This document shows, in pieces, positions 49,216 through 53,155 of a DNA stretch of 64,000 bases (position 1 is its first letter; the number at the start of each line of letters is the position of its first letter). The notes beneath the pieces were generated by a model, which was not told where the DNA came from, did not search any database, and worked only from the letters and a program-made list of their open reading frames with translations. The position numbers were made by a program, and so were the translations under genes. This DNA is from Escherichia coli (GTDB lineage: Bacteria; Pseudomonadota; Gammaproteobacteria; Enterobacterales; Enterobacteriaceae). The stretch lies in NCBI RefSeq assembly GCF_016026235.1, contig NZ_CP065613.1; one strand, written 5' to 3'.

Positions 49216-51615
49216 ATGTCCTTAAAAGGTCTGCGCTTTACGCTGGAGGCTGACGGCCAGGAGCCGGACACCTTTGCAGTGGTGAATTTCAGGTTAATCC
49301 AGAACCAGTCTTATCCGTTTGTGATGAGTGTGGATGTTGCCAGCGACTCTTTTATGCAGACGGCGGAGATGCTGCTGGAGAAGAAGGCGACGCTGACCAT
49401 CTGGCAGGGCGTCATCCCGCTGCGTTATGTTACCGGCGTGGTGGCGGGCTTTGGCATGCAGGAGAACAATGGCTGGCAGATGCGTTACCACCTGCGTATT
49501 GAGCCGCCGTTATGGCGGTGCGGGCTGCGGCAGAATTTCCGTATCTTCCAGCAGCAGGATATCCGGACGATATCGGCCACGTTACTGAACGAGAACGGCG
49601 TCACGGAGTGGACGCCGCTGTTTTATGAGGACCATCCGGCGCGGGAGTTCTGTGTGCAGTACGGGGAGTCGGACCTGGCGTTTCTGTCCCGGCTGTGGGC
49701 GGAGGAGGGAATTTTCTTCTTTGAGCGGTTTGCGGCGGACAGTCCGGAGCAGAAGCTGACGCTGTGCGACGATGTGGCGGGGCTGTCACAGGCGGGAGAG
49801 CTTCCGTTTAACCCGGACACATCGGCAGGAGCGGAGACAGAGTGTGTCAGTATGTTCCGTTATGAGGCGTATGTCCGCCCGTCGTCGGTGCAGAGCCAGG
49901 ATTACACGTTTAAGGTGCCGGACTGGCCGGGGATGTATGAGCAGCAGGGTGAGAACCTGAACGGACAGCTGGCGCAGTACGAGATATTTGATTATCCGGG
50001 AAGGTTCAAGGATGAGCAGCACGGCAAGGATTTCACGCTGTACCAGATGGAGAGCCTGCGCAGTGATGCGGAAAAGGCCACAGGGCAGAGTAATTCGCCG
50101 AGGCTGTGGCCGGGAACGCGGTTTACGCTGACGGGGCATCCGCAGAAGATGCTGAACCGTGAATGGCAGGTGGTACAGAGCATTCTGTCAGGAAACCAGC
50201 CGCAGGCGCTGCACGGCAGCCAGGGAAAGGGAACCACACTGGGAAATCAGTTAGAGGTGATACCGGCGGACCGGACGTGGCGTCCACGGCTGCAAAGCAA
50301 ACCGAAGGTGGACGGGCCACAGAGCGCCATTGTCACCGGGCCTGCGGGAGAGGAAATCTTCTGCGATGAACATGGCCGGGTACGGGTGAAGTTCCACTGG
50401 GACCGTTATCACGGGATGACGGAGGCGAGTTCATGCTGGGTGCGGGTATCGCAGGCGTGGGCGGGGCCGGGGTTTGGTAACCTGGCGATACCGCGGGTGG
50501 GCCAGGAGGTGATTGTTGATTTTCTGAACGGAGACCCGGACCAGCCGCTGGTCATGGGCCGGACGCACCATGAGGACAACCGTTCGCCGGGCGACCTGCC
50601 GGGAACGAAGACGCAGATGACCATCCGGTCGAAGACCTATAAAGGAAGCGGATTTAACGAACTGCGCTTCGAGGACGCCACCAGTAATGAGCAGGTGTAT
50701 ATCCATGCGCAGAAGAACATGGATACGGAGGTGCTCAACGACCGGACAACGGATGTGAAACATGACCATACGGAAACCATCGGTAACGACCAGAAGATAA
50801 CGGTGGTGAAGGGTCAGACGGTTCAGGTCGGTACAAAAAAAGAGGGGGGCCACGACCAGAGTATCACGGTGGCGAACGACCGGCGTATCACGGTACGTAA
50901 TGACCAGACTCTGAAGGTGACGAATGACCGGACGGTGAGCGTGAGTCACGATGACGGTCTGTACGTCAGAAACGACCGTAAAGTGACGGTGGAAGGGAAG
51001 CAGGAGCATAAGACGACGGGGAACCATATCAGTCTGGTGGAGGGGAAACACAGCCTGGTGGTGAAGGGGGACCTGGCGGAGAAGGTGAGTGGCGCGCTGG
51101 GGATAAAAGTGGACGGGGATATCGTGCTGGAGAGCAGCAGCCGGATAAGCCTGAAGGTGGGTGGCTCGTTTATCGTCATTCAGCCGGGCGGAGTGGATAT
51201 TGCCGGGCCGAAGATAAACCTGAACGGTGGGGGCAGTGCGGGGACACCGGTGGGGACGATGCAGCCGGCGGTGCTGGAGGCTCCGGAGGATGAGAGCAGT
51301 GATGATGGCAGTGATGACTCCGGAGAGGATAGTGGCAATCCCGCAGGGAGTGACGGAGGAGGTGATGGCGGTGACGATGAAGATGATCCTGAAAAATATA
51401 CCCTCCAGTTCCATTTTACGGACGATGACGGGATACCGTATTCAGAGACGCAGTATATTGCCTTTTTTGAGGATGGCACACAGACGCGTGGTGAAACAGA
51501 CAGAGAGGGATATACAGAAATATTTTATACAGATACAGCACAGGAAATTAAAGTCCAATTGTTATTTTCGGATGCTTTTTATATTGAGCCGGAGGGGCAT
51601 TATGGCAGGGAATAA
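49216..51615 (+). CDS. vgrG: T6SS spike protein VgrG with C-terminal extension (acidic linker plus ~70 aa C-terminal domain)
   Basis: 799 aa; gp27/gp5-like regions, beta-helix repeats (VTVRNDQTLKVTNDRTVSVSHDDGLYVRNDRKVTV), acidic SSDDGSDDSGEDSG linker, C-terminal domain ...EKYTLQFHFTDDDGIPYSETQYIAFFEDG... Confidence 0.9.
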   Translation: MSLKGLRFTLEADGQEPDTFAVVNFRLIQNQSYPFVMSVDVASDSFMQTAEMLLEKKATLTIWQGVIPLRYVTGVVAGFGMQENNGWQMRYHLRIEPPLWRCGLRQNFRIFQQQDIRTISATLLNENGVTEWTPLFYEDHPAREFCVQYGESDLAFLSRLWAEEGIFFFERFAADSPEQKLTLCDDVAGLSQAGELPFNPDTSAGAETECVSMFRYEAYVRPSSVQSQDYTFKVPDWPGMYEQQGENLNGQLAQYEIFDYPGRFKDEQHGKDFTLYQMESLRSDAEKATGQSNSPRLWPGTRFTLTGHPQKMLNREWQVVQSILSGNQPQALHGSQGKGTTLGNQLEVIPADRTWRPRLQSKPKVDGPQSAIVTGPAGEEIFCDEHGRVRVKFHWDRYHGMTEASSCWVRVSQAWAGPGFGNLAIPRVGQEVIVDFLNGDPDQPLVMGRTHHEDNRSPGDLPGTKTQMTIRSKTYKGSGFNELRFEDATSNEQVYIHAQKNMDTEVLNDRTTDVKHDHTETIGNDQKITVVKGQTVQVGTKKEGGHDQSITVANDRRITVRNDQTLKVTNDRTVSVSHDDGLYVRNDRKVTVEGKQEHKTTGNHISLVEGKHSLVVKGDLAEKVSGALGIKVDGDIVLESSSRISLKVGGSFIVIQPGGVDIAGPKINLNGGGSAGTPVGTMQPAVLEAPEDESSDDGSDDSGEDSGNPAGSDGGGDGGDDEDDPEKYTLQFHFTDDDGIPYSETQYIAFFEDGTQTRGETDREGYTEIFYTDTAQEIKVQLLFSDAFYIEPEGHYGRE

Positions 51616-52405
51616 TAATACTAGTGGGACTTCACAACCCGAGTCGCAAGTATGTGTAGTACCGCAAAAAATTACAAATAAATTTAAAATAATGATGAGT
51701 AAGGCTTGTAAAGCACAGAAAATGGTTTTATTGAAAAGAGCAGATGATATTATGTCATGGGAGGGGGAACAACAACGAGATTTTATTAAAGTTTTTGGCC
51801 TTAAAGGCGAGGACATTATAAAAATCAGAAAGGTTGGGGAAGATACTGGGAAACGAATGCAAGCGAGACTATTCATAATGGATGGCATCAGACGAATAAT
51901 GACGATTGCAAATGGTTTGACGATCGAAAGCTATAAAGATTATACGAACTGCAATGAATTTGCTGCTTTTATTAGTCCACATCTTGATCCTCCTTACATT
52001 GTAAATATCGGAGCGCATTTTGAATACAGACATGGTATAAAACAGTCGGTTACAGGTAGAGACTCTCATGTAAGTACACTTTGCCATGAAATGTCCCATA
52101 TATTTTGGTATTGGGGTGACAATCAAAAAGGTGGTATGTGGACTCAGGATTATACGGGTATTAATAAGTTCGCAACAAGTAATAAGGATGAAGTTAGCTA
52201 TGAGAAACATGTTTCAGTGGCTAATGATCTGGTTACATTGCGTAAAGATCAGTTATTTGAGAATGCATATAATGTTGAAAGATATTTTTATATAAAATTA
52301 AATGATGAAGATATTGAAGCTCAAGATGAGAATATGTTAGCAAAAAAAGTAGAGGATAAAATAAAAGAGATAGAAAAATGTTTTGATGAGTTGATGGGGA
52401 AATAA
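51602..52405 (+). CDS. VgrG-coupled HExxH protein, candidate zinc-metallopeptidase effector
   Basis: ATG 51602 overlaps the vgrG stop by 14 nt; 267 aa; HExxH in hydrophobic context (TLCHEMSHIFWYW) followed by WTQDYTG; low-GC cassette. Confidence 0.55.
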   Translation: MAGNNNTSGTSQPESQVCVVPQKITNKFKIMMSKACKAQKMVLLKRADDIMSWEGEQQRDFIKVFGLKGEDIIKIRKVGEDTGKRMQARLFIMDGIRRIMTIANGLTIESYKDYTNCNEFAAFISPHLDPPYIVNIGAHFEYRHGIKQSVTGRDSHVSTLCHEMSHIFWYWGDNQKGGMWTQDYTGINKFATSNKDEVSYEKHVSVANDLVTLRKDQLFENAYNVERYFYIKLNDEDIEAQDENMLAKKVEDKIKEIEKCFDELMGK

Positions 52406-52468
52406 GATGAAGAGGTTGGCTTTCTATAATCTAAATTATGTTGTACTGATGGTTTTTTTCTTTGTTTT

Positions 52469-53155
52469 TTGCCATTATCTATTGCAATTGCAATAGATAA
52501 TGAGAATCTTTTTGTAAAAAAATACAGATTCGGTTTTGAACGAAGAAGTGACAATGGGAAACCAATTATTTATCTTAGCCATAATTTAGCGCCAGAGGAA
52601 AATATAAGTAATGAATTAACAAATGATGTTGTTGTTAAATTGGTGGTTAAGCCACATGCTGAAAATATTTTAGCTACTATAACTTTTTATAACAGTAGTA
52701 CTAAATCGTATTTTCTCCCCAGAATATATTATCCAAAGAACTTCCAAAAAGGAAATGGAGATGTATTTGATGCTTTGTGTGATGACGAATTCTTGATTAC
52801 ATCAGGAAATATTAGCTTAGACTATCTAGGAGGCTTTTGTCCCTTTGAGCTTGATTTGAATTTGAGCCGATGGGTGGAAATTACGGCAGGTAAAAAAATA
52901 TCTTTTGATGTAAAATTGAATGATATGCATTCATTTCTCCCCAGTTTAAATAATTATCATATAAAAACATTAAACTACAAACTTGTTAGGAGAAAATGGT
53001 TTGTATTAAAATCAATTAATGAAACATTCCTCTCTATTTTGATGAAAAGATACTCATGTAATGAATATGATTTTAGAGCTATATCATTTAGTGGAGAGGG
53101 ATGTGATAATTATGAATTTGATAAAAATACGTTTTTTTTGTTAATCAAATATTAG
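52469..53155 (+). CDS. hypothetical protein, candidate cognate immunity/partner of the HExxH protein
   Basis: 228 aa ORF (TTG start in ORF track) directly downstream in a very AT-rich cassette; an upstream ATG at 52407 encodes a hydrophobic leader in a different frame. Confidence 0.4.
   Translation: MPLSIAIAIDNENLFVKKYRFGFERRSDNGKPIIYLSHNLAPEENISNELTNDVVVKLVVKPHAENILATITFYNSSTKSYFLPRIYYPKNFQKGNGDVFDALCDDEFLITSGNISLDYLGGFCPFELDLNLSRWVEITAGKKISFDVKLNDMHSFLPSLNNYHIKTLNYKLVRRKWFVLKSINETFLSILMKRYSCNEYDFRAISFSGEGCDNYEFDKNTFFLLIKY

Follow-up and report, generated by a model that had tools for sequence, protein, structure and literature searches.

The stretch of DNA discussed here, referred to below as the window, comprises 64,000 nucleotides (nt) of the Escherichia coli chromosome (NCBI RefSeq assembly GCF_016026235.1, contig NZ_CP065613.1), and it holds a type VI secretion system (T6SS) gene cluster. 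Behind the VgrG spike gene of this cluster lie two AT-rich genes, and the three together probably make up one module, in which an aspzincin-type zinc metallopeptidase toxin would dock onto the spike and an exported immunity protein has a predicted likeness to a protease propeptide. Both genes belong to an acquired AT-rich cassette, and the immunity gene is broken in this sequence. The features of the spike and of the toxin are listed here (lengths in amino acids, aa; GfMEP is an M35 enzyme of known structure).

49216-51615, + strand: vgrG, 799 aa, T6SS spike protein (NCBIfam TIGR03361, E 9e-179; Pfam Phage_GPD, Phage_base_V and Gp5_trimer_C)
51388-51612, + strand: VgrG C-terminal domain, ~75 aa (KYTLQFHFTDDDGIPY...GYTE...), preceded by an acidic Gly/Asp-rich linker
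51602-52405, + strand: predicted aspzincin (M35-like) zinc metallopeptidase effector, 267 aa, without signal peptide and without propeptide
52085-52099, + strand: HEMSH, with the predicted zinc ligands H162 and H166 and the catalytic E163; invariant in 26 homologues and aligned to HESSH of GfMEP
52148-52150, + strand: D183, putative third zinc ligand; GGMGTxD in the family, here GGMWTQD; paired by hhalign with D130 of GfMEP (GTKD)
52277-52279, + strand: E226 in NAYNVERYF, invariant, likely counterpart of E157 of GfMEP (NAYNIERYF against NADNHE-YF in hhalign)

The effector and its VgrG spike

As for the effector, a preliminary description of this DNA had noticed a 267-aa open reading frame (ORF) translationally coupled to vgrG, and this observation stands: the ATG is found 5 nt past a GGAGGGG Shine-Dalgarno sequence, and the two genes overlap by 14 nt, the TAA of vgrG included. 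The same description had singled out an HExxH motif and the string WTQDYTG. Both are present, the former within TLCHEMSHIFWYW (H162-E163-x-x-H166) and the latter at residues 180-186, and to judge from the family alignment they are not a matter of chance, because H162, E163, H166 and D183 are invariant in all 26 members; the other invariant positions are Y223, N224, E226, Y228 and F229. Homologues were sought exhaustively among 1.84 billion representatives, which gave 43 relatives, 26 of which make up the alignment, and by a word-indexed search, which gave 9 clusters.

Single-sequence searches with the effector returned no match in the PDB or NCBIfam and a weak one in Pfam. The family profile, searched against the PDB, finds AsaP1 (E 6.6e-7) and GfMEP (E 1.6e-5), and across the family the Pfam model PF14521 (Aspzincin_M35) reaches E<=0.001 in 4 and E<=0.1 in 16 of the 26 members, with 3.5e-9 as the best value. 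Structure prediction, which had been proposed as a check, gave a metallopeptidase-like fold: the AlphaFold2 (AF2) model of the effector has a predicted local distance difference test (pLDDT) of 90.1 and a predicted template modelling score (pTM) of 0.86, and its only significant Foldseek matches in the PDB are three M35 enzymes, namely GfMEP (1G12), AsaP1 (2X3A) and deuterolysin (1EB6). When the family is aligned with GfMEP by hhalign (probability 95.5%, E 1.5e-8; the GfMEP sequence used is identical to 1g12_A), the HExxH helices are paired, as are D183 with D130 and NAYNIERYF with NADNHE-YF.

The aspzincin signature is GTxDxxYG, located C-terminal to HExxH, and the Asp of its GTxD half is the third zinc ligand (PMC7215534). 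The effector possesses the HExxH motif, an Asp that aligns with this third ligand and, in the model, the fold of the catalytic domain. Profile, fold and motifs all back the metallopeptidase reading of the preliminary description, together with its hint at an aspzincin, and the protein is predicted to be a zinc peptidase of the aspzincin/M35 fold with an Asp as third ligand.

Another point of interest is E226. In GfMEP, it is E157 that determines the specificity for Lys at P1', and its mutation alters the P1' preference (PMC11985622). E226 would correspond to this residue because NAYNIERYF pairs with NADNHE-YF, and the S1' Glu thus retained hints, by analogy, at a basic P1' residue in the substrate. 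The aspzincin placement, with this Glu, is in this way also a lead on substrate specificity.

The likeness to GfMEP/LysN, AsaP1 and deuterolysin takes in the catalytic fold, HExxH, the Asp of GTxD and the C-terminal NAxNxE(x)YF helix that bears the S1' Glu. One difference concerns the way in which the enzyme would leave the cell: classic M35 enzymes are secreted zymogens with a signal peptide and an inhibitory propeptide (PMC10787681, PMC11985622), whereas the effector, presumed to be delivered by the T6SS, has neither a signal peptide nor a covalent N-terminal inhibitory propeptide. In addition, D154 of GfMEP gives way to the invariant Y223, and the effector has an extra N-terminal tail and, in the E. 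coli subgroup, a C-terminal helix.

Related to the enzyme is the question of how it is loaded onto the spike. VgrG had been credited with a C-terminal extension of the kind that recruits cargo, and this extension is a conserved domain that accompanies the effector family: it is kept in eight of the eight VgrGs that precede a family member, and its consensus among relatives, where it again follows an acidic linker, is KYxLQFHFTDDDGxPY...GxTDxxGYTE. These ~75 aa are missing from the orphan vgrG fragment of the tle1 module downstream. In E. coli PAR, a split-off VgrG C-terminal protein binds the effector M35-PAR and is needed for effector binding (PMC10673891); by analogy, the domain in the window would be the docking site for the effector encoded downstream of it. 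No sequence match to the domain exists in Pfam or the PDB, and a first guess, that of a transthyretin-like domain, was dropped for this reason.

The same order of genes is found in all the relatives whose context was read, in E. coli, in Buttiauxella and on metagenome contigs: a VgrG with the C-terminal domain, then the effector, then an exported partner. Every homologue locus examined follows a vgrG, and in the other loci read vgrG and the effector gene overlap by 8-14 nt, with the exception of one (L017).

The partner gene, its alleles and its predicted fold

The second gene of the pair calls for a correction of the gene model, and its features are as follows.

52407-53244, + strand: cognate partner gene (putative immunity gene), 279 aa when intact, with two 1-nt homopolymer contractions here
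52453-52459, + strand: T7 tract (T8 in intact alleles), which cuts the start of the signal peptide off from the remainder of the gene
53132-53139, + strand: T8 tract (T9 in intact alleles), which removes the conserved C-terminal ~40 aa
52469-53155, + strand: 228-aa ORF with a TTG start, the middle frame of the disrupted partner gene

The preliminary description had named a 228-aa ORF as the partner. That ORF exists, but the actual gene is the 279-aa one, of which the window holds a frameshifted remnant. In E. coli A30, 32F4 and PapRG-04-4 the gene is intact, starting with an ATG one base past the effector stop (52407 in window numbering) and coding for 279 aa. The whole protein can be recovered in the window by tblastn, split across three frames, because the T7 and T8 tracts are each one T short. 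In the window allele the signal peptide is out of frame, and the conserved tail is lost.

The intact protein starts with MKRLAFYNLNYVVLMVFFLCFLPLSIAIA, which by eye reads as a putative Sec signal peptide, and its homologues also have hydrophobic N-termini. Among the cysteines, C218 is present in 10 of 10 aligned sequences and C125, C145 and C233 in at least 90%; the C-terminal segment, ...SNEVxVxIDGxK..PY, is conserved even in distant homologues. In relatives, the partners measure 266-306 aa and are homologous throughout (phmmer E 1e-20 to 1e-71).

How common is the broken form? In the cluster members that were read, 96 contigs have the 279-aa form, 120 the 249-aa form, 49 the 228-aa form and 12 a 258-aa form, and an exact-sequence look-up of the main forms gives 93, 110, 49 and 11 contigs, respectively. 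The window effector allele is present on 48 contigs, with accession numbers adjacent to those of the 228-aa partner allele, and of the 40 cluster members read for the effector, nearly all have one of 267 aa. The poly-T variants are real inherited alleles. The alternative that they are long-read assembly errors was considered and ruled out, since each allele occurs on tens of independent contigs and goes with matching effector alleles. An intact toxin gene next to an antidote gene that has been shortened repeatedly at poly-T tracts is relevant to the maintenance or loss of such cassettes.

The homopolymers of this gene invite some further observations. Among near-identical E. coli cassettes (loci L001-L010), its two longest T tracts vary, as T7/T8/T9 and T8/T9. 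In the commoner paralogous cassette, too, the partner gene of strain BCE049 (locus L022, 9040-10000), which RefSeq annotates as two short ORFs, differs from that of locus L012 at three homopolymers (A7/A8, T7/T8 and A8/A7). At the T7 tract of the window, U UUU UUC (52454-52460) is in phase with the frame that starts at ATG-52407, and a -1 slip would recreate the exact wild-type N-terminus and signal peptide; 12 nt downstream of this heptamer, a perfect 13-bp palindrome can form a stable hairpin (52473-52502; -17.2 kcal/mol, z -3.3). The slippery tract and the hairpin are mentioned as a curiosity, with no claim attached, and they could be a chance by-product of IAIAI codons.

Copies of the partner are also found outside the usual arrangement, either in tandem or as orphans, which is typical of immunity genes. 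Two of them stand in tandem in one metagenome locus. In E. coli ATCC 25922 (locus L024, 3216-5797), a third, shorter effector subtype (200 aa, with HEFSH and GYNIERYFE) is accompanied by its own partner, behind which stands an orphan partner of the BCE049 type, frameshifted; the immunity genes of this array would be what remains after cassettes replaced one another. In about 100 other E. coli genomes, only the partner portion of the query finds a match.

With regard to the fold, that of the partner is also recognisable: its predicted beta-sandwich core resembles the AsaP1 propeptide. When effector and partner are both aligned with 2x3a, the former accounts for 165 residues and the latter for 123, that is, 288 of the 293 modelled residues. 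Compared with the AsaP1 propeptide and with the intracellular proteinase inhibitor BsuPI of Bacillus subtilis (3ISY), the partner stands apart: it is exported as a protein of its own, it has a conserved segment at the N-terminus and an extension at the C-terminus, and the similarity in sequence is not significant; nothing in it obviously corresponds to the K-R that is invariant in aspzincin propeptides. The conserved segment near the N-terminus of the mature protein (IKKYGFGFERRS.DG.P.IYP) is predicted to be disordered, and that it might become ordered on the toxin is speculation.

Perhaps the pair is a split aspzincin zymogen, a possibility put forward tentatively: the catalytic domain would have become a VgrG-loaded toxin, while a descendant or mimic of the propeptide, provided with a signal peptide, would have become the periplasmic immunity protein, inhibiting incoming toxin in trans much as a prodomain keeps its own protease silent. 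A literature search found no paper that ties T6SS immunity proteins to protease propeptides. If the propeptide-like fold is borne out, there would be a simple path by which a toxin/antidote pair can evolve, and the AsaP1 proenzyme could serve as a structural model of immunity.

Proposed mechanism, tested relatives and rival explanations

The mechanism proposed for the module would run as follows. The conserved ~75-aa end of VgrG would dock the protein encoded just downstream; the effector, made in the cytoplasm of the attacker, would be carried by the firing spike into the periplasm of a Gram-negative neighbour. There, H162, H166 and D183 would hold the zinc ion, with E163 acting as general base, and an envelope substrate would be cut, perhaps beside a basic residue. 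The immunity protein, Sec-exported to the periplasm and furnished with conserved cysteines, would most likely cover the active site as a propeptide does. In this sequence, the immunity gene is broken by the two poly-T contractions while the toxin gene is intact.

Two relatives of the module have been tested in published work. The M35 peptidase FQU84_13640 of BCE049 inhibits E. coli only when it carries a PelB (periplasmic) leader (Front Vet Sci 2021, PMC7904677), and it is 57.5% identical to the window effector over the full length. The BCE049 cassette shares with the window the layout PAAR-VgrG-effector-partner and differs in its location, as it is an orphan vgrG island (P0006-type, at the yncE-ansP-yncG site) outside the T6SS-1 core cluster. 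It is also far commoner: about 509 of 5426 complete E. coli genomes carry it, compared with 12 that have the window type.

The other relative is M35-PAR (AKO63_2955) of E. coli PAR, which is toxic and from which cells are rescued by AKO63_2956 (Commun Biol 2023, PMC10673891). The cloning primers in the supplement of that study encode MSNDRGS... and ...RYFEID for M35-PAR, and the primer for DUF2345-PAR ends in ...GGVHE. A locus of this type was located by short-word blastn, a megablast with the 44-nt primer having given no match. The E. coli locus that matches the primers is recognised by both the effector profile (E 1.5e-76) and the partner profile (E 8e-58), and its VgrG C-terminal domain is 59% identical to that of the window, so that all three parts belong to the same families. 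As to differences, the identity between M35-PAR and the window effector is no more than 27.5%, and M35-PAR carries a longer insert that separates the N-terminal helices from its catalytic core; in PAR, at another T6SS locus, vgrG is also split into two genes. DUF2345-PAR may not come from an adaptor gene in its own right but from the second part of a split vgrG, because in FDAARGOS_536 (locus L025, 1725-4240) the vgrG that precedes an M35-PAR-type effector is annotated as frameshifted.

The kind of system described here is already known, because relatives have proved toxic, rescued by the neighbouring gene and bound by a piece of VgrG in published tests. The preliminary description had been unable to place the protein in a named family; such a family is in fact annotated, with RefSeq calling the first ORF "peptidase M35" or "M35 family metalloendopeptidase" in the genomes that carry the window-type segment, and it is partly characterised. 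The effector/immunity reading of that description is in turn supported by the invariant vgrG synteny, by the signal peptides and cysteines of the partners, by the tandem and orphan copies and by the tests on the two relatives. What the present analysis adds is the firm aspzincin assignment apart from VgrG2b, the corrected partner gene model, the predicted propeptide-like fold of the immunity protein and the poly-T decay.

Several results weigh against the reading of the module as a spike-docked aspzincin toxin with a propeptide-like antidote, in one or other of its parts. Taken singly, the window effector matches PF14521 with just E 0.0022. The YG half of GTxDxxYG is missing: TQDYTG has its Tyr at +1, the YG of GfMEP remains unaligned in hhalign, and the residues after D183 vary across the 26-member alignment. 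Relative to GfMEP, eight residues are inserted ahead of GTxD, and the window protein has W in place of the G of this motif. On the side of the partner, the model, obtained from ten family members, is of just moderate confidence (pLDDT 66.8 overall, 80-90 in the beta-sandwich core, residues 72-200), and the family has no sequence match in Pfam or the PDB. Its hhalign comparison with 11 partial (N-terminally truncated) propeptides covers 29 columns, which correspond to a W/F-x-x-L-x-P-G...Y-D/A-L/F hairpin, with a probability of 15% and E 0.0017. The window protein is a rarer subtype of a known kind, and its toxicity, rescue and loading are carried over from relatives by analogy. Finally, with a broken immunity gene and a frameshift in tssF, the module may not be working here.

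This last point leads to the first of the rival explanations, that the cassette is a decaying relic, made non-functional by the immunity pseudogene together with the tssF frameshift, which is a real possibility although not quite the favoured one. Besides the T7 and T8 tracts that disrupt the partner gene, there is the fact that the broken allele, on 49 contigs, stands beside the window effector allele (48 contigs), and is inherited rather than a read error. In addition, the baseplate gene tssF (43487-45347, - strand) is split into two ORFs, matching positions 3-466 and 466-600 of the TssF profile, by a 1-nt insertion at about 43892 that lies outside homopolymers and gives rise at once to a TGA. 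The top-listed genomes among the 549 of E. coli that carry this tssF lack the inserted base, and 0 of the 549 match the window exactly. In FDAARGOS_943, which shares the broken partner allele, copies of IS21, IS600 and IS1 have inserted into the cluster. If the sequence is accurate, the T6SS apparatus is probably inactive, and therefore the loss of immunity would be tolerable. However, the effector ORF is intact, and the tssF lesion could be an assembly error of this one sequence. Moreover, decay concerns the present state of the module, not its nature. Could the effector, instead, be a member of the metallopeptidase family of the VgrG2b C-terminal domain and Tpe1, in which HExxH is combined with a Glu? 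The parallels are evident, as both are spike-carried HExxH toxins of the T6SS that act in the periplasm, and the VgrG2b immunity protein is periplasmic and depends on its signal peptide and disulfides (Wood et al. 2019, PMC6899460); PMC10673891 even equates M35-PAR with the VgrG2b toxin domain. The fold data obtained here, being predictions, do not support this equation: up to E 10 there is no sequence-profile match to VgrG2b, it is absent from the fold results, and neither the fold nor the triad of 6H56 was recovered. The VgrG2b type uses HExxH and E (PMC12992299), a different type of zincin, whereas in the effector the invariant Asp of GTxD aligns with the aspzincin ligand; the Tpe1-Tpi1 and VgrG2b immunity proteins, too, are small and unrelated to the partner. 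On these grounds (no profile or fold match; Asp, not Glu, as third ligand) membership was rejected, and it is scarcely credible.

Two other explanations change the role of one member of the pair. A protease aimed mainly at eukaryotic host proteins, as is the fish-toxic exoprotease AsaP1, would agree with the standing of AsaP1, the nearest solved bacterial relative, as a virulence factor (so described in PMC7215534 by way of Arnadottir 2009) and with the attenuation of BCE049 T6SS deletion mutants in mice (PMC7904677). Yet the deletion of effector locus 1 in BCE049 caused no attenuation of virulence, relatives kill E. coli from the periplasm (PMC7904677) and a neighbouring gene rescues it (PMC10673891), and the gene for the exported partner is always adjacent, with an orphan copy also on record, all of which makes a mainly host-directed role unlikely. 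The partner might also be a detached folding chaperone, a propeptide acting as foldase rather than an immunity protein, and its predicted resemblance to the AsaP1 propeptide speaks for this. That the partner has a signal peptide and the effector none, however, puts them into different compartments of the producing cell; an orphan partner copy occurs without its effector, and AKO63_2956 rescues from toxicity (PMC10673891). The chaperone is accordingly judged very unlikely.

Genomic setting and cassette junction

The T6SS cluster of the window follows the order tssA, tssM, vasI, clpV, tssL, tssK, tssJ, tagH, tssG, tssF, tssE, tssC, tssB and hcp, and hcp is followed by the vgrG at 49216-51615, the two ORFs under study, the orphan vgrG fragment, tla1, two tli1a genes and a tle1-like lipase gene. 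The 2-kb segment around the pair is 100% identical to that of E. coli FDAARGOS_943, and a segment of the window type is present in 12 of 5426 complete E. coli genomes. The AT-rich cassette of the preliminary description is confirmed by the GC content, which is 0.343 in the effector gene and 0.292 in the partner gene, compared with 0.588 for the core of vgrG and 0.508 for the window as a whole. The features that mark its downstream border and what lies beyond are these.

51086-51300 and 53371-53585, + strand: direct repeat of 215 nt, 75% identical, marking the cassette junction
53371-53732, + strand: orphan 3' fragment of the displaced vgrG (repeat match; annotated as a pseudogene in relatives by the Prokaryotic Genome Annotation Pipeline, PGAP)
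53739-54509, + strand: tla1, of the older downstream module (NCBIfam Tla1, E 1.2e-64; RefSeq names)
54823-55377 and 55362-55904, + strand: two tli1a genes (NCBIfam Tli1a, E 8.6e-62; RefSeq names)
55889-57982, + strand: tle1-like lipase gene (RefSeq product names)

The cassette evidently displaced the 3' end of an earlier resident vgrG, because a 215-nt direct repeat is found at the two sides of the junction, and left the orphan vgrG fragment upstream of tla1-tli1-tle1. The acquired part takes in the linker and the C-terminal domain of VgrG as well as the two genes. The arrival of this M35 cassette may have cost the Tle1 module the spike C-terminus that was cognate to it. The orphan fragment ends in another tail (...KECLKRAQEAAAVFAPRG) and lies directly upstream of tla1.

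As for the wider surroundings, an rRNA operon occupies 13450-18678 (16S, tRNA-Ile, tRNA-Ala, 23S, 5S and tRNA-Asp), and a second tRNA-Asp is located at 26826-26902, with the identified T6SS genes starting ~1.8 kb past it. The placement of the cluster would fit a tRNA-associated island, at whose far end an IS4-family insertion sequence (IS) transposase gene is found at 60025-61266 on the - strand (NCBIfam E 9.8e-108).

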